From positions 64,001 through 128,000 of the IMG/VR virus record IMGVR_UViG_3300017716_001697: 64,000 nt of DNA, one strand, 5' to 3'. Below are positions 14,288 to 62,896 of the stretch, piece after piece. Origin of the DNA: a virus (lineage: Duplodnaviria; Caudoviricetes). How positions within the stretch are numbered: the stretch's first letter is position 1; every line of letters begins with the position of its first letter. The position numbers and the translations under genes were made by a program. The notes below the pieces were generated by a model. That model did no database searches. It was given only the letters and a program-made list of their open reading frames with translations, and was not told the origin of the DNA.

Positions 14288-15331
14288 ATGTCAAAAACAC
14301 TAGACGAAATCAGAAAAAAATTGCAAGCCATGGACAATCGCAAAGGTGGCGCAGCAGGCGGATTCAGTAATGATAAGTTGACTTATCCACACTGGAACAT
14401 CGCAGAAGGAACCCAATCAATTTTAAGACTATTACCAGACGGTAATGAAGAAAATACATTCTTCTGGGTGGAACGTCAACTCATTAAACTTACATTCCCG
14501 GGAATTAAGGGCCACGATGAGAACAAGGCAGTTGAAGTACAAGTACCGTGTATCGAAATGTGGGATGGCAAGAATACATGCCCAATCTTAAATGAAGTTC
14601 GTCCAATGTGGAAAGACAAAGCACTCGAAGATACAGCACGTAAGTACTGGATCAAGAAGTCTTATTTCGCACAAGGTTTCGTTAAGCAAGACGGTATCGG
14701 CGAGCAAGACGCACCAGCTAATCCTATTCGTAAGTTCATCATCAGCCCACAGATTTTCAAGATCTTCCAGGCTGCATTAATGGATGTTGATATGGAAAAC
14801 AGCCCAGTTGATTTTATCAACGGCACTGACTTTATTGTCGCTAAGACAAGCAAGGGTGGATTTGCTGATTATAGCACATCGAAGTGGGCACGTAAGGAAT
14901 CTAGCCTGACTCCAGAACAATTGGCAGCAATTGAACAATACGGTCTTGTAGACTTGAGCGAGTATCTTCCAAAGCGTCCAACTCAAGAGCATCTAGATGC
15001 AATGTTCGAAATGTTCCAAGCATCCCTTGATGGTGAATTGTATGACCCAGCACGTTGGGCTAAATTCTACAAGCCATACGGATTTGATTCTGCACCATCC
15101 GGTGATAGCGAGTCCCGTCCAGTGACACGCCCAGCACCAGCTGTGAGCGCACCAGTTACTAAGCCACTGATCGTTCGCGATCCAGTTGACGAAGATTTGG
15201 AAGCCGATTTGCAAGCCGCAGAGGCACCGGTAGCCGCACCAGTTAAGGAACTTGTTGGCGAAACAGCAGCACCTGCTGGCAAGTCACCACAAGAAATCCT
15301 TGCAATGCTGCGCAATCGCAAGACAGCATAA
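14288..15331 (+). CDS. single-stranded DNA-binding protein (T4 gp32-like)
   Basis: ILRLLPD.N...FW, VPCIEMW...CPIL, YWIKKSY, G.DF, YSTSKW; acidic/Pro-rich tail. Confidence 0.92.
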   Translation: MSKTLDEIRKKLQAMDNRKGGAAGGFSNDKLTYPHWNIAEGTQSILRLLPDGNEENTFFWVERQLIKLTFPGIKGHDENKAVEVQVPCIEMWDGKNTCPILNEVRPMWKDKALEDTARKYWIKKSYFAQGFVKQDGIGEQDAPANPIRKFIISPQIFKIFQAALMDVDMENSPVDFINGTDFIVAKTSKGGFADYSTSKWARKESSLTPEQLAAIEQYGLVDLSEYLPKRPTQEHLDAMFEMFQASLDGELYDPARWAKFYKPYGFDSAPSGDSESRPVTRPAPAVSAPVTKPLIVRDPVDEDLEADLQAAEAPVAAPVKELVGETAAPAGKSPQEILAMLRNRKTA

Positions 15332-17606: not shown

Positions 17607-19066
17607 TGACAAAAACAACACTACATATTATCGATGAAGTAAACATAAAATTCAGCGATCTAGATCCTGCATGCAGACGCAAAATGGTTCAGTCGCTCGA
17701 ATTTATGTTACCGTATGCCAGACACACGCCTGCATTCAAACTAGGAAGATGGGATGGTAAGATGTCATTCTGTGACATTGGCGCAAGATCGTACCTGAAT
17801 CTCTTAGATGTGTTATTGCCCATTGTTACTCAGCACGGTTACGAAGTTGAAATAGAAGATCACCGCCAACCTGCACAAGATTTTGTGTTTGATTTAGTTG
17901 AGGGAGATAGTTATTCGCACATCACATGGCCACCGGGTCATCCTAAGGCAGGCGAACCCATTGAAGTCAGGGAACACCAGCTAGATGTTATCAACTCTTA
18001 CCTAGAGAATATAACAGGCATTAACATAGCGCCAACAGGCGCTGGTAAGACGATTATAACTGCGATTTTGAGTCATAAAATCGAACCATACGGCCGAAGC
18101 ATCGTAATAGTACCCACTAAGGATCTTGTTACGCAAACTGAAGAAGATTACATCAACTTCGGATTAGATGTCGGGGTGTTCTTTGGTGATAGAAAGGAGT
18201 ATGGTAAGACCCATACTATATGTACATGGCAAAGCTTAGAAAGCCTGAACAAGCGTTCAAAAGAAACAGATTTAGAGGTCGATATAAACGATTTCTTCGA
18301 TGGCGTGGTGTGCGTCATAGTGGACGAAGTACACAAAGCGAAAGCAGATGTATTGAGAAAGCTATTATCGACCTATTTAGCAAACGCACCGATTAGGTGG
18401 GGACTCACCGGTACCATGCCAGAAGAAGAGGCAGATAAGGTCGGTGTCCGCGCCTGTATCGGTCCTATGTTAGGTCAAATCAATACAAGGGAATTACAGG
18501 ACAAAGGTATTCTTGCTAATCTGCATGTGAACGTATGGCAATTGCAGGATGTAGGACAGGCTGCTAGTGGAAATTATCAGACAGAGCTAAAATGGCTAAC
18601 TACTAATAAGAAACGCTTAGAGTATATTGCCAAACAGGCAATAACGGTAGCAGAATCCGGTAACACACTTATACTGGTTGATCGTGTCGAGACAGGTGAG
18701 ATGTTACAATCATTAATACCTGATTCTATCTTTGTCTCAGGGAAGATGAAGTCAAAGGATAGAAAAGAGGAATATAGAGAGGTACAGGAAGTTGATGGCA
18801 AAGTTATTATTGCAACGTATGGCGTTGCTTCTACTGGTATTAATATTGTTCGTATTTTTAATTTAATTCTTTTCGAAGCTGGGAAGAGTTTTGTTAGAGT
18901 TATACAGAGTATTGGTCGCGGCATCCGTGTTGCAGCCGATAAGGACTTTGTTAATGTCTACGATATCTGCTCAAATTGCAAATACAGTAAGAGCCATCTG
19001 ACTAAACGTAAGAAGTTTTATAAAGACGCTGAATATCCATTCAGTATAACTAAAATTAATTATTAA
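17606..19066 (+). CDS. uvsW: SF2 helicase UvsW
   Basis: APTGAGKT, VDEVH, GLTGT, TGINI, QSIGRGIR. Confidence 0.93.
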   Translation: MTKTTLHIIDEVNIKFSDLDPACRRKMVQSLEFMLPYARHTPAFKLGRWDGKMSFCDIGARSYLNLLDVLLPIVTQHGYEVEIEDHRQPAQDFVFDLVEGDSYSHITWPPGHPKAGEPIEVREHQLDVINSYLENITGINIAPTGAGKTIITAILSHKIEPYGRSIVIVPTKDLVTQTEEDYINFGLDVGVFFGDRKEYGKTHTICTWQSLESLNKRSKETDLEVDINDFFDGVVCVIVDEVHKAKADVLRKLLSTYLANAPIRWGLTGTMPEEEADKVGVRACIGPMLGQINTRELQDKGILANLHVNVWQLQDVGQAASGNYQTELKWLTTNKKRLEYIAKQAITVAESGNTLILVDRVETGEMLQSLIPDSIFVSGKMKSKDRKEEYREVQEVDGKVIIATYGVASTGINIVRIFNLILFEAGKSFVRVIQSIGRGIRVAADKDFVNVYDICSNCKYSKSHLTKRKKFYKDAEYPFSITKINY

Positions 19067-19389
19067 TGAAAACAGTTCAATTAGATATTGATGTAAGGCA
19101 TCATAATCTCATGAAGATATTCTTTGAAGCAAACGATTTATTTAAATTAGGCTTCACATTAGATATTGTTGATCGGGATTATGATACCCCGATGACAATA
19201 ACCTCCCCTGATGGCATTCAGCGTACCTATTCGTTTTCACAGACTAAGAAAGTATTAGAGTATACGTACGATGATGAAGACGAGTATCAGGTCGGCAAAA
19301 TAGTCGACCTTAGTCTTAAACATTTAGGATTCAACAATATGCTGCATGATTTTTTAAATAAATGTGGTGTTTCACAGCACGGCGCATAA
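19066..19389 (+). CDS. hypothetical protein
   Basis: 107-aa ORF with stop/start overlap. Confidence 0.6.
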   Translation: MKTVQLDIDVRHHNLMKIFFEANDLFKLGFTLDIVDRDYDTPMTITSPDGIQRTYSFSQTKKVLEYTYDDEDEYQVGKIVDLSLKHLGFNNMLHDFLNKCGVSQHGA

Positions 19390-19628
19390 TGCACTCAGTT
19401 CGCACAACGATTCCACGCTGGCAAGCTAGTGACTTTAGAATATTTCTAGAAGCGCACGATCTAGAAGAGCTTATAGTGGGTGATTATGAAAATATAACAG
19501 ACACATGGTATTCAACTAGACTGGTCTGTTATGCATACAGCGATTCATCTACGAAAGCCATTGCGAATATGACCTATATTACGTTAAAATACGGTAGTGT
19601 AGAAAAAGCATTCGACGAATTAACATAA
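19389..19628 (+). CDS. small hypothetical protein
   Basis: ATG overlaps the upstream stop; C-terminal ITLKYGS motif. Confidence 0.55.
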   Translation: MHSVRTTIPRWQASDFRIFLEAHDLEELIVGDYENITDTWYSTRLVCYAYSDSSTKAIANMTYITLKYGSVEKAFDELT

Positions 19629-19646
19629 TTATAAAGAGGCATTAAA

Positions 19647-20150
19647 ATTAACATCTTAACCAACGACAACGTAGCATATAATCTCGATAAGGTCCCTAAT
19701 GAGATTGAAGACATTAGATATTGTGTATTAGATTACTCCAATCCTAAAGAACCAGATTATTTCTTTATTCCGCTGATATTCCTTGAAAGTTTTTATGCAC
19801 CAGCTGTGGTATTGCAGATAGACAAGTATAAGATACAGATGCCACTCGATTGGTCGATTCTAGTATGCGATGACAGCTATAGTGATATCGAAATTATGCC
19901 ATTGACAAGTCTTAATGATCGAGGCTTTTGTACAATGGTATTTAATCCATTGAGGCATATGGTCCCTCGTCCAAAAGAAATTGCTATTACTAATGTATAT
20001 GCCGAAGTCAAATGGTTCTTCCCTAAATTAAAACACGGTAATATTCTTGTAGTACCTTTAGAAGACGGTCCATTCCCTAATTGTGCGTTATTTGTTAAAG
20101 AAGTAAACAAATTGCCTGAAGTAATTGATATTGGAGCACTCTTTGAGTAA
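19647..20150 (+). CDS. hypothetical protein, probable ATT start
   Basis: Frame open from 19635; AGAGG 7 nt before ATT 19647; reads (M)NILTNDNVAYNLDKVPNEIEDIRYCVLD... into the tracked ORF 19806. Confidence 0.65.
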   Translation: MNILTNDNVAYNLDKVPNEIEDIRYCVLDYSNPKEPDYFFIPLIFLESFYAPAVVLQIDKYKIQMPLDWSILVCDDSYSDIEIMPLTSLNDRGFCTMVFNPLRHMVPRPKEIAITNVYAEVKWFFPKLKHGNILVVPLEDGPFPNCALFVKEVNKLPEVIDIGALFE

Positions 20151-20700
20151 CGTAGAAGATTGGATCACCGGGTTCTATGAATTGAATCCTAATGCTGTAA
20201 GGCATGAGGCGCCGACGAAGGCAAAAAAGAAAGAAAGCACATTGTCGCTTTCATCTGAATTATCTGCAATGGATACGCGAGACAAAGACTTCTACGCTAA
20301 TCTAAGTGACGAACATAAGAAAGAAATTAGCCTCTGGGTGTTAATGCGTTATATGAGTTCTGCGCGTGGAGATGCCTATAATCATTTGACAACAGTGAAT
20401 GATTTGGTTAATGTTGATTTCAGCACAATAGCCAAACACCCTGAATTGCAATGGAAGTTATTAGCAATCTGTGGTACAAACAAGAAACAATTTCACGATT
20501 GGATACCACCGGGTAAGAAAGCAAAAAAGAATAAATTAGAAGAAGCATTAATAGGATTAAATTCGTTAATGAAAGATGATGAATTAGCCTTGTTTCAACG
20601 TATAAATACCCGCGAAGATTTTGAAGAATATTTTAGAGCGAATGCATTTGATGACAAAACAATTAATGAAATCTTCAAAACTGACTCAAAAGGAAAGTAG
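20143..20700 (+). CDS. clamp loader small subunit-like (T4 gp62-like)
   Basis: ISLWVLMRYMS...HPELQWKLL...FHDWIPP pattern; GGAG + TTG 20143. Confidence 0.55.
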   Translation: MSNVEDWITGFYELNPNAVRHEAPTKAKKKESTLSLSSELSAMDTRDKDFYANLSDEHKKEISLWVLMRYMSSARGDAYNHLTTVNDLVNVDFSTIAKHPELQWKLLAICGTNKKQFHDWIPPGKKAKKNKLEEALIGLNSLMKDDELALFQRINTREDFEEYFRANAFDDKTINEIFKTDSKGK

Positions 20701-21388
20701 TAAACCTGTGATACAGCAGTTTCAATGTAAATTCTGTAATATGAAATTCCATAAAGAGACTACGTTAGTGACGCATATGTGCGTCAAGAAGCGTCGTGAT
20801 ATGGAAATTAATACGCCAGCATCGAGGTTCGGTCACAGGACCTTTCAGCGTTTCTACGATTTAACAATGGCCAACAAGAAGCCTAAGACAACACAAGAAT
20901 TTATAGAGAGTCCATATTACATCGACTTTGTTAAATTCGGAAATCACTTGGCAAATCTTAGACCTGTGTATCCAGAGAAATTTATCGACTTCGTAATTAA
21001 GAACGGGGTTAAACTAAAAGACTGGACAAAGGATTTTGTATACGATATGTATATTGAGGATCTTATTAAGAAGGAACCTGCCGAGGCAGCAACTGCTCGC
21101 ACCATAGATGAAATAGTCGAATGGACCGAGGAAAATAAAGCATGTTTTAACGACTTTTTTGGCACTATTTCAGCGAATGAAGCAGCCCATATGATTAGGA
21201 CAGGTAAGATTAGTCCGTGGGTGTTATATCTGTGCGAATCTGGCGGAGAACTGATGGGAAAGTTTAATGCAGATCACGAAAGAATTATCGGTGGCGTTAT
21301 AGATCCCGGCTTCTGGATGAAGAAGTTTAAAAACAGTAAAGATGATGTGGACTATATAAGGTCTCTATTAGAGCAAGCAGGGTTATGA
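20666..21388 (+). CDS. hypothetical protein with N-terminal C2H2-like zinc finger
   Basis: FQCKFCNMKFHKETTLVTHMC; start uncertain. Confidence 0.6.
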   Translation: MKSSKLTQKESSKPVIQQFQCKFCNMKFHKETTLVTHMCVKKRRDMEINTPASRFGHRTFQRFYDLTMANKKPKTTQEFIESPYYIDFVKFGNHLANLRPVYPEKFIDFVIKNGVKLKDWTKDFVYDMYIEDLIKKEPAEAATARTIDEIVEWTEENKACFNDFFGTISANEAAHMIRTGKISPWVLYLCESGGELMGKFNADHERIIGGVIDPGFWMKKFKNSKDDVDYIRSLLEQAGL

Positions 21389-21642
21389 TTGTATTTCTGG
21401 AATTAGAGCCAATGTCTAAAACAGTTGAAGCAGCACTAGATGATGCCTATATTGCTGTGAATGAAGGTATATCGCATACATATGTTGATGGCAAATATCG
21501 AATTTTTACATTTTATGATACCGAAGATGAATTAGCCTTTACGCTAACTCACGGAAGCACATTTGTAGAATCGGAAATGTATGTGAATGGTGCCGCTGGC
21601 TTCTTTTTCTGCCCTTATATTCCATTATATCCTATAAAATGA
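21385..21642 (+). CDS. small hypothetical protein ending in a gp23-like FFCPYIPL motif
   Basis: 85-aa ORF, ATGA overlaps on both sides. Confidence 0.55.
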   Translation: MIVFLELEPMSKTVEAALDDAYIAVNEGISHTYVDGKYRIFTFYDTEDELAFTLTHGSTFVESEMYVNGAAGFFFCPYIPLYPIK

Positions 21643-22238
21643 AAATAATTACAACTGATGTAGATATCGACGTATTCGGTAGAGATAAGATCCTTCAGGG
21701 ACTAGAATGCGTCTATGGCCGAATCGACAGAGCTGACGATAAGTTTGAAAAACATCCTACAGGTATATACTTCCAAAATATCCCACGTGATCCTACTACT
21801 AACATATCTACATTAGATCATAGGATTGCATGCGAGTACGGTTATTTTAAGATTGACTTTCTTAATGTGAATATGTACGAAGGCATTAGGAGCGAAGAAC
21901 ACTTACTAGAATTACTGCATAAAGAACCACCGTGGGACTTTTTCCAGTACGAAGACATAACTGACCGATTATTTCATCTTAAGGGATACGGTCATTTATT
22001 GCAGAGACTAAAGCCCGAGTCAGTTGAGGATATCGCAATGATACTAGCAATGATCAGGCCAGCCAAATCTTATCTACAGAGTGCTAACTGGGACAAGATT
22101 CGAGTTGAGATATGGGATAAGAATTTAGACAGAACAGATTATCAATTCAAACGCCAGCATGCTATCTCATATAGTCTTGCTATTATTGTTAATCTTAACT
22201 TATTAATTGATCAATTACAGACTAGAGGCGACGAATAG
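21639..22238 (+). CDS. minimal DNA polymerase III alpha (DnaE) catalytic-core protein
   Basis: TDVDID, KHPTG, GYFKIDFL, LAMIRP, YQFKRQHAISY match the DnaE palm/finger motifs in order. Confidence 0.8.
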   Translation: MKIITTDVDIDVFGRDKILQGLECVYGRIDRADDKFEKHPTGIYFQNIPRDPTTNISTLDHRIACEYGYFKIDFLNVNMYEGIRSEEHLLELLHKEPPWDFFQYEDITDRLFHLKGYGHLLQRLKPESVEDIAMILAMIRPAKSYLQSANWDKIRVEIWDKNLDRTDYQFKRQHAISYSLAIIVNLNLLIDQLQTRGDE

Positions 22239-22257
22239 AGCTATGAATAGCTCTATT
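22234..22257. terminator. hairpin between convergent genes
   Basis: AATAGAGCTA / TAGCTCTATT. Confidence 0.65.
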
Positions 22258-22270
22258 GTGAATAGAAAAA

Positions 22271-22642
22271 TTAGTCCGCTTTTCTAATGAGTTGAATCTG
22301 ACGTTTCTTGATTCGTTTACGCATGATGTTGTTTAAGCTTGTCACAGACCCAAACATTATCTCTATGTCTTTGTTCACCACTGTCTTTAGACAGTAACGA
22401 AAATCTTGCATCTGTCCTTGAAGGAAAATATTAATAGGCAATATCCTATTACTTTCCCACCACCATGTCTCACCTAGGTGTAAGAATATCTTCTTTTCTG
22501 CAGGAGTGCGAATTGACTCGTAATCGTAGAAACTCATAATCTTATCATCGGAATTTTGAACTATGCCAATATATTCAGATGTTTGGCATCTAATCCCGCT
22601 AAGAAACGGGAATTTTTCTTTAATTTCGTGTAAATTTATCAT
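22271..22642 (-). CDS. hypothetical protein
   Basis: 123-aa ORF; TATAAATA 6 nt upstream on the minus strand; shared terminator at 22234. Confidence 0.7.
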   Translation of the reverse strand: MINLHEIKEKFPFLSGIRCQTSEYIGIVQNSDDKIMSFYDYESIRTPAEKKIFLHLGETWWWESNRILPINIFLQGQMQDFRYCLKTVVNKDIEIMFGSVTSLNNIMRKRIKKRQIQLIRKAD

Positions 22643-22724
22643 ACCAGTTATTTATACTGTTTATAACATACAAGAATTTTTTTTGATGTTATTAGTGATA
22701 AATATACTAAAAGGTGGGAAACAG

Positions 22725-23630
22725 ATGGACATTACTTTTCATAAAATGTATCTATACGAAAACGTTCGGCAGTTATTAGCCGTCGGTGACACCTTTTGCC
22801 CATGCAAGGACAACGGCCCAATGAATAAGAACACAATTAAAGCGCATAAAGGTATTGATAACAAAGTTATCTTCCGTGTATTAGGGCCAGACAGAATTCC
22901 ATTTGATGTTGGGTGTGGCCAACAGGTATATGCTCGTATTATGGATCCAGACAATAGACGTGTGGTCTTGGAACGTCTTTGCAAATTAGGTCCAGCAAAA
23001 GGTATTGTCACACTTAATTTAGACAGCGGTGACCTTGCAGAAATAGCTCCTGGTCTATACACAATGGTATTGATAAGAACAGAGAACTTCGTCTCATCAA
23101 CCACCTGTGCTGGTGGCAACGGATTACACGGTGATGCTATAGATTATTATATAGAGAAACCACTATACAGTGATATGAATGACAATGTCTCTATGCAAAT
23201 AGAAATTACTGAGCAGGCATTTAAATCTCCAATGAAGAGTATAGAGATGGGGATAAGGGATTGGACACCTGATATAAACATTGGTCAGTTTGGCCCACCA
23301 ACGCCATCGTTTTATACTGGTAGAATCCCTGGCGGCAGAATATTGAATCATATTAATTCTGTTCATTCATTCTCAACCTACACCAAAAATTTCACAGGTA
23401 TCTTACAGATATGGGGCAGTCTCGAAGAAGCACCGGACCCGTATTTGTCATCAACTAGATGGTTTAAGATATATCCTACTTCAATGTCACAAGATATTGA
23501 ATTTATTGGATACTCTGGGACACAGGCATGGACCTTCTCTGCAAACTTTATGTGGTTGAAATTTAGATATATCCCTTCTACCGCTGTGTTGGATCCGGGT
23601 ATAATGGAAAAGCTTATTGTCAGGGTGTAG
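22725..23630 (+). CDS. late hypothetical (probable virion) protein
   Basis: GATAAATA 22697, AAGGTGGG SD, ATG 22725. Confidence 0.65.
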   Translation: MDITFHKMYLYENVRQLLAVGDTFCPCKDNGPMNKNTIKAHKGIDNKVIFRVLGPDRIPFDVGCGQQVYARIMDPDNRRVVLERLCKLGPAKGIVTLNLDSGDLAEIAPGLYTMVLIRTENFVSSTTCAGGNGLHGDAIDYYIEKPLYSDMNDNVSMQIEITEQAFKSPMKSIEMGIRDWTPDINIGQFGPPTPSFYTGRIPGGRILNHINSVHSFSTYTKNFTGILQIWGSLEEAPDPYLSSTRWFKIYPTSMSQDIEFIGYSGTQAWTFSANFMWLKFRYIPSTAVLDPGIMEKLIVRV

Positions 23631-23649
23631 ATCCGGTGTCGAAACGCTG

Positions 23650-23678
23650 TTGACAAATTAATCGAAGATCATTATAAT
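23650..23678 (+). promoter_or_regulatory. consensus sigma70 promoter (primase)
   Basis: TTGACA-17-TATAAT; predicted +1 is the A of ATG 23685. Confidence 0.9.
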
Positions 23679-23684
23679 GCTATA

Positions 23685-24746
23685 ATGATCATAGATATTC
23701 TTAAGAATGCAATTCTTGCCAACGTAGGCCCGTTAAAACAGGCGCCTAAGAACTGGCATAAACGAAATTGCATGTTGTGTCACACCCAAGGACACAGTCA
23801 TGATACTCGTCACAGATTTGGCATTCAATTCAATCCTAGCTCTATCGCACTGAATTGCTTTAATTGCGGATTCTCTGCAGGATATACAGAGGGTAAGGAT
23901 TTATCGAAGTCGTTTAAGTTTTTCTTAAGGCAAATAAATTTAGACGCAGACTTCATAAAGCAATTAGAATTTGAAATATTTAAACAGAAAAACAATATAA
24001 CATCGATACGCGAAGGCGATACTGCGGTAGTCGATATCGAAGCAAAGTTTAAGACATTATTTAGTAAGTGGAAACAAGTTCCACTACCGGCTGATTCTAT
24101 GCCTATCACTGCCTGGTTGAAAGAGGGACTAGACGACCCCGACTTCCTACAAGTTGTGGAATATGCATTAGCAAGAAAGATATATGATTTAGATAACTTT
24201 TATTGGTCACCGATACACGAACACAATTTAAATCATAGGCTGATTATACCGTATCAATACAGAAACAAAATTGTGGGATTTACCGCAAGACTTTCATATG
24301 ACACAGACGGGAAAGAAATTCCGAAGTACTATCAACAGTCACCCACTGACTTTGTCTACAATCTGGACCATCAACAGGACTGGATGCGTAAATACGTGAT
24401 TGTAAACGAAGGCGTATTAGATGCATGGACTACCGATGGTGTCGGTACGCTGGGCGAAATTAATCAGTCGAAGATCGATGTTATAAATAGATTACAAAAA
24501 GATGTCATTGTTTGTCCCGACCGAGACAAGAAGGGTTGGGATTTAGTTAAAGCAGCAATTGACAATGACTGGGCAGTATCTTATCCTAAATGGGAATTTG
24601 GAATAAAAGATGCAGCCAAGGCAACAGAAAAATATGGTAGATTGCTTACTACACATTCCATTATCGCTTCAGCAGTAGCCGGTAGAGAACATATAGAATT
24701 AAAATGGAAAATAGAACAAGCAGAACGTTCAAGAAGGATACGATGA
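23685..24746 (+). CDS. DNA primase (T4 gp61-like)
   Basis: CMLC...HCFNC-type Zn finger (CMLCH...CFNCG), RLIIP, NEGVLDA and VCPDRD Toprim motifs. Confidence 0.88.
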   Translation: MIIDILKNAILANVGPLKQAPKNWHKRNCMLCHTQGHSHDTRHRFGIQFNPSSIALNCFNCGFSAGYTEGKDLSKSFKFFLRQINLDADFIKQLEFEIFKQKNNITSIREGDTAVVDIEAKFKTLFSKWKQVPLPADSMPITAWLKEGLDDPDFLQVVEYALARKIYDLDNFYWSPIHEHNLNHRLIIPYQYRNKIVGFTARLSYDTDGKEIPKYYQQSPTDFVYNLDHQQDWMRKYVIVNEGVLDAWTTDGVGTLGEINQSKIDVINRLQKDVIVCPDRDKKGWDLVKAAIDNDWAVSYPKWEFGIKDAAKATEKYGRLLTTHSIIASAVAGREHIELKWKIEQAERSRRIR

Positions 24747-26194
24747 TTAAAGAAGAAACAAACGCAAGCGAAATTGACGATTACAGCAAGGATATTGAGG
24801 ATCTGTTTATTAGCTTCATGATGAGTAAGCCAGATCTGTTTGTTCGTTGTAAGGGTATTTTGAAATCAGCATACTTCGATGATAAACAGAATAGAGACAC
24901 TATTGCATTTATCGAATCGTACAGTGTAGACTTTTCCGACATTCCCTCACTGCATCAAATTAGGGCCGTAACTCATAAGGATGTTATGATTATGGAAGTT
25001 GATGCTGAAAAGCACGACGATTGGTTTCTTAGAGAGTTTGAAAAGTTTTGTAGACATAAGGCATTGCGTGATGCTATTTTAGCTTCACCAGAATTATTAG
25101 ATGAGGGCAGATATGGCGAAGTTGAGTCAACCATTAAGGCGGCAGTACAAATCGCACTGGTCAAGGATCTCGGAACGGACTATTACGAAAATCCAAAATC
25201 TAGACTCGAGGCGATCAGGGAAGGTAAGGGTCAGTGTTCCACAGGTTGGAAAACCGTAGATGAAAAATTATACGGCGGCCTAAACAAGGGCGAAATAACA
25301 ATTTTTGCAGGTCAGTCTGGTGCAGGAAAATCTTTGTTCTTACAAAATCTTGCAGTAAACTGGGCAATGGCCGGATTAAATGTTGTGTATATTTCGTTAG
25401 AACTTAGCGAAAAGCTTTCAGCTATGCGTATTGACGCTATGCATACAGGATATGAAACACGTGAAGTTATGCGTAACATCGATGATGTGCATATGAAGAT
25501 TCGAGCATCGCAGATGAAGAGCAAAGGTAGTTTGCGAATAAAGCAATTGCCGAATGGATGTACATCAAACGATATCAGAGCATTCCTTAAAGAATACGAA
25601 ATTCAGAAGGGTGTTACTGTTGACGCAATTTTAATCGATTATTTGGATCTGATGATGCCAATGAGTAAGAAGATTTCTGCTGAAAACTTGTTCGTTAAGG
25701 ACAAATATGTAACAGAAGAATTGCGTAACTTAGCTGTTGAATTAGATATTGTTACTGTTTCAGCATCGCAGTTAAATCGTGGCTCGTATGAAGAAATTGA
25801 ATTTGATCCAAGTCACATTGCAGGTGGTATTTCTAAAGTGAATACAGCCGACAACGTTATTGGCATCTTCACAAGTGCAGCAATGAAAGAAGGCGGCCGT
25901 TACCAAATTCAATTCATGAAGACACGTTCAAGTTCGGGTGTAGGATCTAAGGTAGATTTAGCATTCAACAATAAGAGTTTGCGTATATCGGATCTCGACG
26001 AAGATGAAGATAATGCTGTTCAGGCAACATCAAAAGGCATCTACGAACAATTAAAGAAGAAGAGTGTTATTAGATCCGGTGAGAAACTAGATACGAACAC
26101 GGGCGAAGTCACAAGTATAACACCTAGACCGACGAATAAGGTGGATGCGATAGAGGGAGCCGCCAGTCTTCGAGCTTTTCTTAAGAAACGTTAA
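24743..26194 (+). CDS. replicative helicase (T4 gp41/DnaB-like)
   Basis: AGQSGAGKS, ISLELSE, LIDYLDLM, SASQLNR, KTRSSSG. Confidence 0.95.
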   Translation: MIKEETNASEIDDYSKDIEDLFISFMMSKPDLFVRCKGILKSAYFDDKQNRDTIAFIESYSVDFSDIPSLHQIRAVTHKDVMIMEVDAEKHDDWFLREFEKFCRHKALRDAILASPELLDEGRYGEVESTIKAAVQIALVKDLGTDYYENPKSRLEAIREGKGQCSTGWKTVDEKLYGGLNKGEITIFAGQSGAGKSLFLQNLAVNWAMAGLNVVYISLELSEKLSAMRIDAMHTGYETREVMRNIDDVHMKIRASQMKSKGSLRIKQLPNGCTSNDIRAFLKEYEIQKGVTVDAILIDYLDLMMPMSKKISAENLFVKDKYVTEELRNLAVELDIVTVSASQLNRGSYEEIEFDPSHIAGGISKVNTADNVIGIFTSAAMKEGGRYQIQFMKTRSSSGVGSKVDLAFNNKSLRISDLDEDEDNAVQATSKGIYEQLKKKSVIRSGEKLDTNTGEVTSITPRPTNKVDAIEGAASLRAFLKKR

Positions 26195-62113: not shown

Positions 62114-62896
62114 TTGGAGGACTCAATGTCACATAAAGAAAAATTTTTAGAAGAATGTATTGTACTGGATACGGAAACAACCGGTAAAGATTACAATACG
62201 GCTGAAATTATTGAAACAGGGTTTGTTATCCGCGAAGGTGGAGAATGGATCTTATTTCAGGACTTACATAAACCTAAAGGCAAGATTCCACCAATGGTAG
62301 AGTCTATATGCTACATCACGAATAAAATGGTTGAAGACAAACCAGTCTTTGTTGATGCAAAAGAAACATTTCAAACAGTAGTCGATGGGTTTGCAAATGG
62401 GTATGCTGTAGGTCACAATTATTTCTATGATATGAAAGTATTGCAGAATCACGGTATTACAATGCCTAAGAATTCTATCTGTACATGGCGTATGGCTAAG
62501 AAGTTGTTTAATGGCATGAATGAGATTGAAAGTACAAGTCTACCATATTTGCGTTTTGCACTAGAACTAGATGTGCCAATTGATATGTACTGCCACCGTG
62601 CGGGCAACGATTCGTTTATAACCGGCAAATTACTTGAAATTATGGTGGATTTAATGGAGTCGTCTGATCTACTGGACCTAGACATGCCATACGGTCCACA
62701 AATTGCAGAATGGGCCGCAGCGCCTATTATTTACGAGCGTATGCCGTTTGGAAAACATAAGGGCGAACTAATGATCGATGTGCCACATAGCTACTGGAAG
62801 TGGGCAACACAGAATATGGATTCGCTAAACGAAGATGCTGATAACTTCGATCCCGATCTTGCGGCAAGCGTGCATAAGGCACTGGGACTAAATTAA
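62114..62896 (+). CDS. DEDDh 3'-5' exonuclease (exonuclease X-like)
   Basis: LDTETTG, VGHNYFYD, HRAGND, C-terminal MPFGKHKG. Confidence 0.88.
   Translation: MEDSMSHKEKFLEECIVLDTETTGKDYNTAEIIETGFVIREGGEWILFQDLHKPKGKIPPMVESICYITNKMVEDKPVFVDAKETFQTVVDGFANGYAVGHNYFYDMKVLQNHGITMPKNSICTWRMAKKLFNGMNEIESTSLPYLRFALELDVPIDMYCHRAGNDSFITGKLLEIMVDLMESSDLLDLDMPYGPQIAEWAAAPIIYERMPFGKHKGELMIDVPHSYWKWATQNMDSLNEDADNFDPDLAASVHKALGLN

Follow-up and report, generated by a model that had tools for sequence, protein, structure and literature searches.

A 199-residue DnaE-like protein of an uncultivated freshwater phage as the probable C-terminal half of a split minimal DNA polymerase III alpha

The 199-residue protein analyzed here (Table 1) very probably represents one part of a split minimal DNA polymerase III alpha, namely the C-terminal half that binds Mg2+ and the template. 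This split enzyme is typical of group 2.2 jumbo phages and was described computationally by Iyer, Anantharaman, Krishnan, Burroughs and Aravind (2021, Viruses 13:63; PMC7824862). The arrangement is already published in that article, and the phage studied here represents a further instance of it and no new principle. The source is an uncultivated freshwater phage, whose virus record is 364,576 bp long and has direct repeats at its termini; the window, i.e. the whole stretch of 64,000 nucleotides that was analyzed, corresponds to positions 64001-128000 of this record. The earlier note on this DNA had presented the gene product as a stand-alone mini-DnaE and had proposed, among other options, that it might be the core of a split polymerase. 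The first description had to be abandoned, because the GRGS half of the palm is absent from the protein and is encoded by a 171-aa gene located 49 kb downstream, whereas the second is supported by the finding of this N-terminal palm half in the same genome.

No smaller version of the fold of the bacterial replicative polymerase is known than the family to which both halves belong, and it sits in phages that otherwise replicate with a family B enzyme of the archaeo-eukaryotic type. With its 320 clusters at 50% identity, it is widespread in environmental giant phages; selection on it is very strong, and it constitutes an attractive biochemical target. The present analysis adds that the two halves are paired in all the genomes examined, that rare and apparently secondary single-chain fusions exist, and that the family is present in a phage of 141.6 kb.

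Table 1. Coordinates of the two halves of the split polymerase and of neighboring features (window positions unless the genome is specified)
Feature	Position	Strand	Characteristics
gp32-like single-strand DNA-binding protein	14288..15331	+	phrog_1192, E 1.5e-59
phrog_11058 gene, 240 aa	20621..21388	+	N-terminal C2H2-like zinc finger; E 7e-59
Small upstream ORF, 85 aa	21385..21642	+	stop overlaps C-half start; no PHROG/Pfam family
C-half of split minimal Pol III alpha	21639..22238	+	199 aa, intact ORF
Hairpin over C-half stop codon, between convergent genes	~22231..22259	.	perfect 10-bp, -12.4 kcal/mol, z -3.3
phrog_11637 gene, 123 aa, convergent	22271..22642	-	syntenic marker; E 2e-30
DNA primase	23685..24746	+	phrog_47, E 2.5e-20
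DnaB-like replicative helicase	24704..26194	+	phrog_19, E 1e-72
N-half of split minimal Pol III alpha, 171 aa	genome 135632-136147	+	PF07733, 30.3 bits (cut-off 23.9); phrog_11127, E 3e-44

Family, fold and conservation of the C-terminal half

The open reading frame encoding the C-terminal half (C-half) is present and intact as the earlier note had described it, and the five motifs listed there were all found in DnaE order, i.e. TDVDID (residues 6-11), KHPTG (38-42), GYFKIDFL (68-75), LAMIRP (136-141) and YQFKRQHAISY (168-178). The protein possesses the metal-binding aspartates D7, D9 (and D11) and K71/D73, the RP motif R140-P141, and K171 and H174 of the FKxxH motif. The proposed coupling of the start is also evident from the sequence, since the ATG of the C-half overlaps the TGA of the upstream 85-aa ORF in the tetranucleotide ATGA (21639-21642). 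The claim that the gene has its own terminator hairpin stood only in part: a hairpin does cover the stop codon, but it has no T-tract, is absent from the list produced by the terminator scan, and is not a canonical intrinsic terminator.

In the PHROGs collection the C-half belongs to phrog_11778 ('DNA polymerase'; E 3e-61, residues 5-192 of 199). Of the Pfam models tested (PF07733 and PF17657), neither reached its curated cut-off with the C-half, the only match being that of PF17657, the Pol III alpha finger domain, with 17.1 bits against a cut-off of 22. When single sequences of either half were compared with the PDB, all the matches were DnaE but non-significant (E 0.3-1.5). Because these matches fell short of significance, a profile search was needed, and the profile was built from 93 representatives of 50%-identity clusters. 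This C-half profile retrieved DnaE chains only, in a collinear alignment with an E-value of 2e-5, in which the DiDiD strand corresponds to 'PDIDTDF' of Thermus aquaticus, KiDfL to 'KFDFL' of E. coli, the RP motif to 'FRPGP', and FKKSHA to 'FNKSHS' of DnaE.

The structural comparisons led to the same family. The AlphaFold (AF2) model of the C-half showed a pLDDT of 95.7, and the best twelve PDB matches obtained with Foldseek were all Pol III alpha (E 2e-3 to 0.16, TM 0.34-0.44), none of them at E <= 0.001. In the VIA structural comparison, 15 DnaE/PolC chains ranked on top with Z values from 9.8 to 6.4, 187-198 residues aligned and an rmsd of about 4 Å, and the next, unrelated chain after these 15 C-family polymerases had a Z of 3.6. 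The DnaE-like identity proposed in the earlier note is therefore upheld by profiles and by a confident fold that match C-family polymerases only.

According to the VIA alignment, residues 4-196 of the C-half model are equivalent to residues 399-784 of E. coli DnaE. In the single-sequence and profile alignments with PDB chains, residues 28-58 replace E. coli 424-539, and residues 143-154 replace E. coli 641-739. These alignment coordinates indicate that the thumb and a large share of the fingers have been deleted, the C-half having about 85 thumb and about 87 finger residues fewer than E. coli DnaE. The thumb domain is absent between the DxD strand and the KHAGG strand, where the model contains short strands only. 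Moreover, the protein stops at the equivalent of E. coli residue 784, without the HhH/beta-clamp-binding domain and the OB fold. Hence the C-half lacks PHP, thumb, beta-binding and OB domains, as the earlier note had stated, and it can be described as a miniaturized nucleotidyltransferase of family C that keeps the catalytic residues and whose activity is predicted from its sequence.

Residues D7, D9 and D73 are the equivalents of D401, D403 and D555 of E. coli DnaE, as deduced from the collinear HMM alignment, the junctions of the naturally fused forms (see below) and the structure; the junctions, which read 'ADFDID' and 'PDVDLE', set the register of D7 on D401 and of D9 on D403. Both K71 and D73 are invariant in the 93 diverse C-half representatives, at least 90% of which keep D7, D9, D11, H39, G42, R140, P141, K143, K171 and H174, and a realignment of the C-half relatives with MAFFT gave a similar picture of conservation. 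H174 aligns with E. coli H760, the sugar steric gate of DnaE, and may have the corresponding role. Thus, the three catalytic aspartates that had been thought to be kept are indeed retained.

A word-indexed search yielded 582 close homologues of the C-half, those listed being 194-211 aa long, and a HMMER search of a library of 1.84 billion proteins led to 320 clusters (50% identity), in which most proteins measure 180-216 aa. A megablast comparison of window positions 19000-24000 with phage records revealed no near relative, and the nearest proteins from isolates, those of the PA5oct group, were 48.5% (C-half) and 45.8% (N-terminal half) identical. The C-half gene was also compared with that of a 96%-identical relative (metagenomic locus L017, 818-1417), from which it differs by 91 synonymous and 9 non-synonymous substitutions (pS 0.77, pN 0.019, pN/pS about 0.025). 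Synonymous sites were saturated in every C-half pair tested, and such a saturation at 96% protein identity indicates that the seemingly close environmental relatives are old lineages under very tight constraint.

These data bear on whether the gene might be a decaying remnant of a captured bacterial dnaE, a reading to which the shortness of the protein and its scores below the Pfam cut-offs would lend themselves. However, hundreds of relatives share its length and its catalytic residues, and protein identity of 96% persists where synonymous sites are saturated. Because catalytic residues and length are conserved under strong constraint, the C-half is not to be regarded as a remnant, and the probability of this alternative is practically negligible. 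This agrees with the view of the earlier note that the gene is not a decayed fragment.

The N-terminal half and its pairing with the C-terminal half

The DxD strand forms the very start of the C-half, from which the part of the palm that comes before this strand, with the GRGS nucleotide-binding loop, is missing. A search of the whole genome with PF07733 gave one match outside the window, namely the 171-aa ORF designated here N-half, which lies 49.4 kb downstream of the C-half gene and 7.6 kb beyond the end of the window. The statement of the earlier note that no other dnaE piece lies in the window is accordingly true of the window, the N-half being located just outside it. The C-terminus of the N-half reads '...GVGRGSS...DYLK', and G139-R140-G141-S142 are invariant among its relatives. 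In its structural model (pLDDT 84.9), residues 71-171 superimpose on residues 278-393 of E. coli DnaE with Z values of 10-12 and an rmsd of 2.1-2.5 Å. The break within the palm thus lies between the equivalent of E. coli residue 393, at the end of the N-half, and that of residues 397-399 (approximately), at the start of the C-half, and since neither half has residues to spare at this point, a split intein could not be accommodated.

Nothing in DnaE structures matches residues 1-70 of the N-half. This segment (genome 135632-135841; 1219-1428 in locus L001) is highly conserved among close relatives, and in the co-fold described below residues 1-29 and 65-77 contact the C-half. The first 70 residues may represent a replacement for a missing domain. 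Two genes downstream of the N-half, a 116-aa ORF (L001 2109-2459; genome about 136.5-136.9 kb) appears by eye to resemble GroES/Hsp10 co-chaperonins.

The possibility that further dnaE pieces might be found elsewhere was followed up at Pfam sensitivity over the 364.6-kb genome, with models of the PHP, beta-binding (HHH_6), finger and N-terminal palm domains. PHP and HHH_6 gave no match at E <= 1, and the finger model matched the C-half gene only; of the pieces sought, the N-terminal palm half was the one that was found. The lack of PHP and HHH_6 matches indicates that the genome does not contain the absent accessory domains in the form of a conventional split DnaE.

To what extent the two halves go together was judged from their co-occurrence. 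An N-half of 169-182 aa, encoded by an open frame of its own, was found in all five of the diverse C-half phages considered (Turkey3, the PA5oct-like Ettore, Atu_ph07, the 141.6-kb Slickus01 and RsoM2USA), at distances of 4.5-182 kb from the C-half, so that with the source genome both halves were found in 6 of 6 genomes examined. In addition, rare natural single-chain forms join the N-half and the C-half exactly at the break point; they are 375, 376 and 376 aa long in one lineage, recovered from three samples, and 353 aa long in another. Two of the three fusions with usable flanking DNA are placed in the C-half locus. In these two loci (L008 and L020) the fused gene is followed by a convergent gene, as in the window; this gene is only partly contained in the contig of L008, and in L020 it encodes a 119-aa homologue of the 123-aa protein of the window (pairwise E 2e-6). 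In the C-half tree, for which the midpoint root was used for drawing only, each of the two fused lineages branches from within the split forms (SH-aLRT 99 and 83-88). This nesting would fit secondary fusions better than an ancestral unsplit state.

When the two halves were folded together, the score was 0.87, and the best of three controls reached 0.45, the halves being pieces of a fold that has been solved as one chain. The pair thus passed its controls. Of 80 solved complexes 58 attained that mark, as did 2 of 110 mismatched pairs, counts that are only a rough reference because alignments made for this analysis were used. Three co-fold runs agreed in at least 91% of the contacts with a partner pLDDT of at least 87. 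Since the halves belong to a fold solved as a single chain, the score may come from likeness to DnaE structures, and the modeled co-fold is to be taken as showing likeness, not binding.

A divergent single-chain mini-DnaE of 353 aa lies in a 3.9-kb metagenomic contig (L009), where its gene (1705-2766) comes directly after, and overlaps, that of a 493-aa DUF5906 protein (231-1712). This arrangement suggests that a replication module of another kind also includes the minimal enzyme.

Gene neighborhood and predicted role

The T4-type neighbors reported in the earlier note are present. Apart from the gp32-like protein, the primase and the DnaB-like helicase (Table 1), the cluster in the window also contains genes for a large terminase, UvsX, a UvsY-like protein, a UvsW-like helicase, and a phrog_11758 protein, for which the annotation in phage Turkey3 reads clamp-loader small subunit. 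A common gene order was found in Turkey3, Ettore and Atu_ph07, and in a shortened form in Slickus01: helicase, small genes, clamp-loader small subunit, zinc-finger gene and mini-DnaE C-half, followed by the convergent gene of about 120 aa, a structural gene, primase and DnaB-like helicase. The phrog_11637 gene occupies the corresponding position in these four phages. As to the synteny and selection that the earlier note had proposed to check, the locus order is kept in distant phages and the C-half shows 91 synonymous versus 9 non-synonymous substitutions. The order is also kept in close metagenomic relatives, with homing-endonuclease insertions at varying places. The homing-endonuclease-like genes (faint NUMOD3 and weak SegE GIY-YIG matches) are found at L017 1891-2481, L018 1384-2118 and 3286-4032, and L019 150-806 and 6027-6632, and none of them was seen at the corresponding positions of the window.

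The genes flanking the C-half were considered as additional DnaE pieces and were discarded, PHROG, Pfam and Atlas giving no support. The zinc-finger protein of phrog_11058 has a weak zf-C2H2_2 match, below the cut-off, and in Atlas it falls in phage hypothetical clusters only; the Atlas matches of the 123-aa protein (eukaryotic carboxypeptidase fragments, score 0.88) were below the trust level and were disregarded. A small ORF upstream of the C-half is also present in close relatives and beside fused forms. The 85-aa ORF of the window evolves fast (66% identity where the C-half shows 96%), and a comparison of the upstream small ORFs detected no homology across lineages, on which grounds its role as a third subunit was rejected. 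Farther upstream, the phrog_11279 gene (19647-20150, + strand) has an apparent ATT start at 19647, with AAGAGG 7 nt upstream; its frame is open from 19635 and contains no ATG, GTG or TTG before 19806, and the profile expects about 55 more N-terminal residues.

The earlier note had regarded the flanking genes at 19647 and 20666 as possible partners of the C-half, and a related reading would be that the 199-aa protein works alone or with the products of flanking genes. The conserved gene order with phrog_11058 and phrog_11637 and the translational coupling of the start to the upstream small ORF would be in line with it. In contrast, the GRGS half is absent from the C-half and invariant in the N-half, the N-half co-occurs in every genome examined, and the natural fusions join exactly these two halves; furthermore, the upstream small ORF is not conserved across lineages, the zinc-finger gene belongs to a phage family annotated without function, and the flanking genes carry no DnaE-related signal. 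This reading is considered very unlikely, and the flanking genes are improbable partners.

The family B polymerase with which, according to the earlier note, such T4-type neighbors normally work was also found in the genome, as a 993-codon open frame matching PF00136 at genome positions 160.5-162 kb. Another gene of the window (62114-62896, + strand) encodes a 260-aa exonuclease of the DEDDh (DnaQ/ExoX-like) type, which stands alone (PF00929, E 3e-15) and carries 'FGKHKG' in an extension at its C-terminus. This protein was rejected as a proofreader of the mini-DnaE, with which it is co-resident and to which nothing links it; that it acts as proofreader for some polymerase is possible.

Returning to the split polymerase, its two products would assemble non-covalently to give a palm plus partial-fingers nucleotidyltransferase of about 370 residues. 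The N-half would supply the GRGS triphosphate-binding loop, the C-half would contribute the site for the two metals together with residues that face the nascent base pair, and the resulting enzyme would add dNTPs to a primer on a template. A low intrinsic processivity is expected because there is no thumb, clamp-binding or OB domain. The most economical reading is that the enzyme would play an auxiliary role, such as primer extension, gap filling or repair, beside the T4-type family B replicase. Given that the thumb, HhH/beta-binding and OB domains are absent, templated synthesis on duplex DNA is an assumption of this scheme.

A more precise function can be proposed by analogy with DnaE, which hands over to PolC in Bacillus, and with Pol alpha in eukaryotes. 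The mini-DnaE would then be a dedicated primer-extension or hand-off polymerase extending the products of the primase before the family B replicase takes over. Such a function, which we put forward tentatively and as rather improbable, is compatible with the strict conservation of the gene and with its fixed place next to those of the primase and the helicase. If it were true, a thumb-less palm with partial fingers, of about 370 residues, would be sufficient for templated synthesis.

The same domain losses allow for a different activity, in which the split enzyme would be active as a template-independent or non-DNA nucleotidyltransferase that might, for example, be a terminal transferase, synthesize a nucleotide signal or act against host defence. 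Such activities occur in other members of the Pol-beta-fold superfamily, and besides the missing thumb, beta-binding/HhH and OB domains and the two deletions in thumb and fingers relative to E. coli, this alternative is favored by the full family B replicase that the phage already has and by the N-half extension of 70 residues that lacks a DnaE counterpart. Nevertheless, the DnaE-specific finger motifs that face the nascent base pair (RP and FKKSH) are kept in at least 90% of the representatives, phages that are very distant from one another have the gene in a fixed position between those of the clamp loader, primase and helicase, and no defence-related match was seen in the family searches made here. 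A non-templated activity is therefore judged unlikely, and an auxiliary polymerase beside the family B replicase is preferred.

Comparison with known systems

Concerning the literature on the family, the article of Iyer et al. was found, and no experimental or biochemical study; similarly, no expression data for the PA5oct homologues of both halves were found in the literature. In some GenBank records the halves already bear the name 'DNA polymerase' or 'DNA polymerase III alpha subunit'. As in the published system, the polymerase of the source phage consists of two small proteins whose genes lie far apart, one being the N-terminal module for NTP binding and the other the C-terminal module for Mg2+ and template binding. 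Its jumbo genome of 364.6 kb also encodes a family B polymerase and the proteins of a T4-type replisome, with no other Pol III domains at the Pfam sensitivity used here (PMC7824862). The two cases differ only in the host genome, here that of an uncultivated phage. Iyer et al. considered a possible cooperation with the family B enzyme, in the synthesis of one strand or in repair, and proposed the family as a model of the ancestral Pol III module (PMC7824862). Single-chain fusions nested among split forms go unmentioned in the passages of the article that were consulted. The PHROG families of the split enzyme are here 11778 (C-half) and 11127 (N-half), the gene order around the C-half is identical to that of the Rak2-type Turkey3, the PA5oct-like Ettore and Atu_ph07, and the presence of the family in the 141.6-kb phage Slickus01 extends it beyond jumbo phages.

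Like DnaE (E. coli 2HNH, T. aquaticus 2HPI/3E0D, M. tuberculosis 5LEW) and PolC (3F2B), the split enzyme has a Pol-beta-like palm with DxD and KxD, the GRGS loop (in the N-half) and the RP and FNKSH-type finger motifs, all in matching order. Unlike them, it is devoid of PHP, thumb, HhH/beta-binding and OB domains and of the tau-binding tail, and it comprises about 370 residues in two chains, compared with about 1160 residues in one chain for DnaE, with 13-25% identity. The 70-residue N-terminal extension of the N-half further distinguishes it from DnaE, and it differs from the intein-joined split DnaE of cyanobacteria in having no split-intein halves at the break.

Replisomes with two polymerases are found in Bacillus subtilis, which uses PolC and DnaE, and in eukaryotes, which use Pol alpha and Pol delta/epsilon. 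By analogy, the source phage would combine a main replicase with a second polymerase of smaller role within its replication module. In contrast to those replisomes, the main enzyme belongs here to family B and the second one is a cut-down member of family C, for which hand-off and primer extension are hypothetical.
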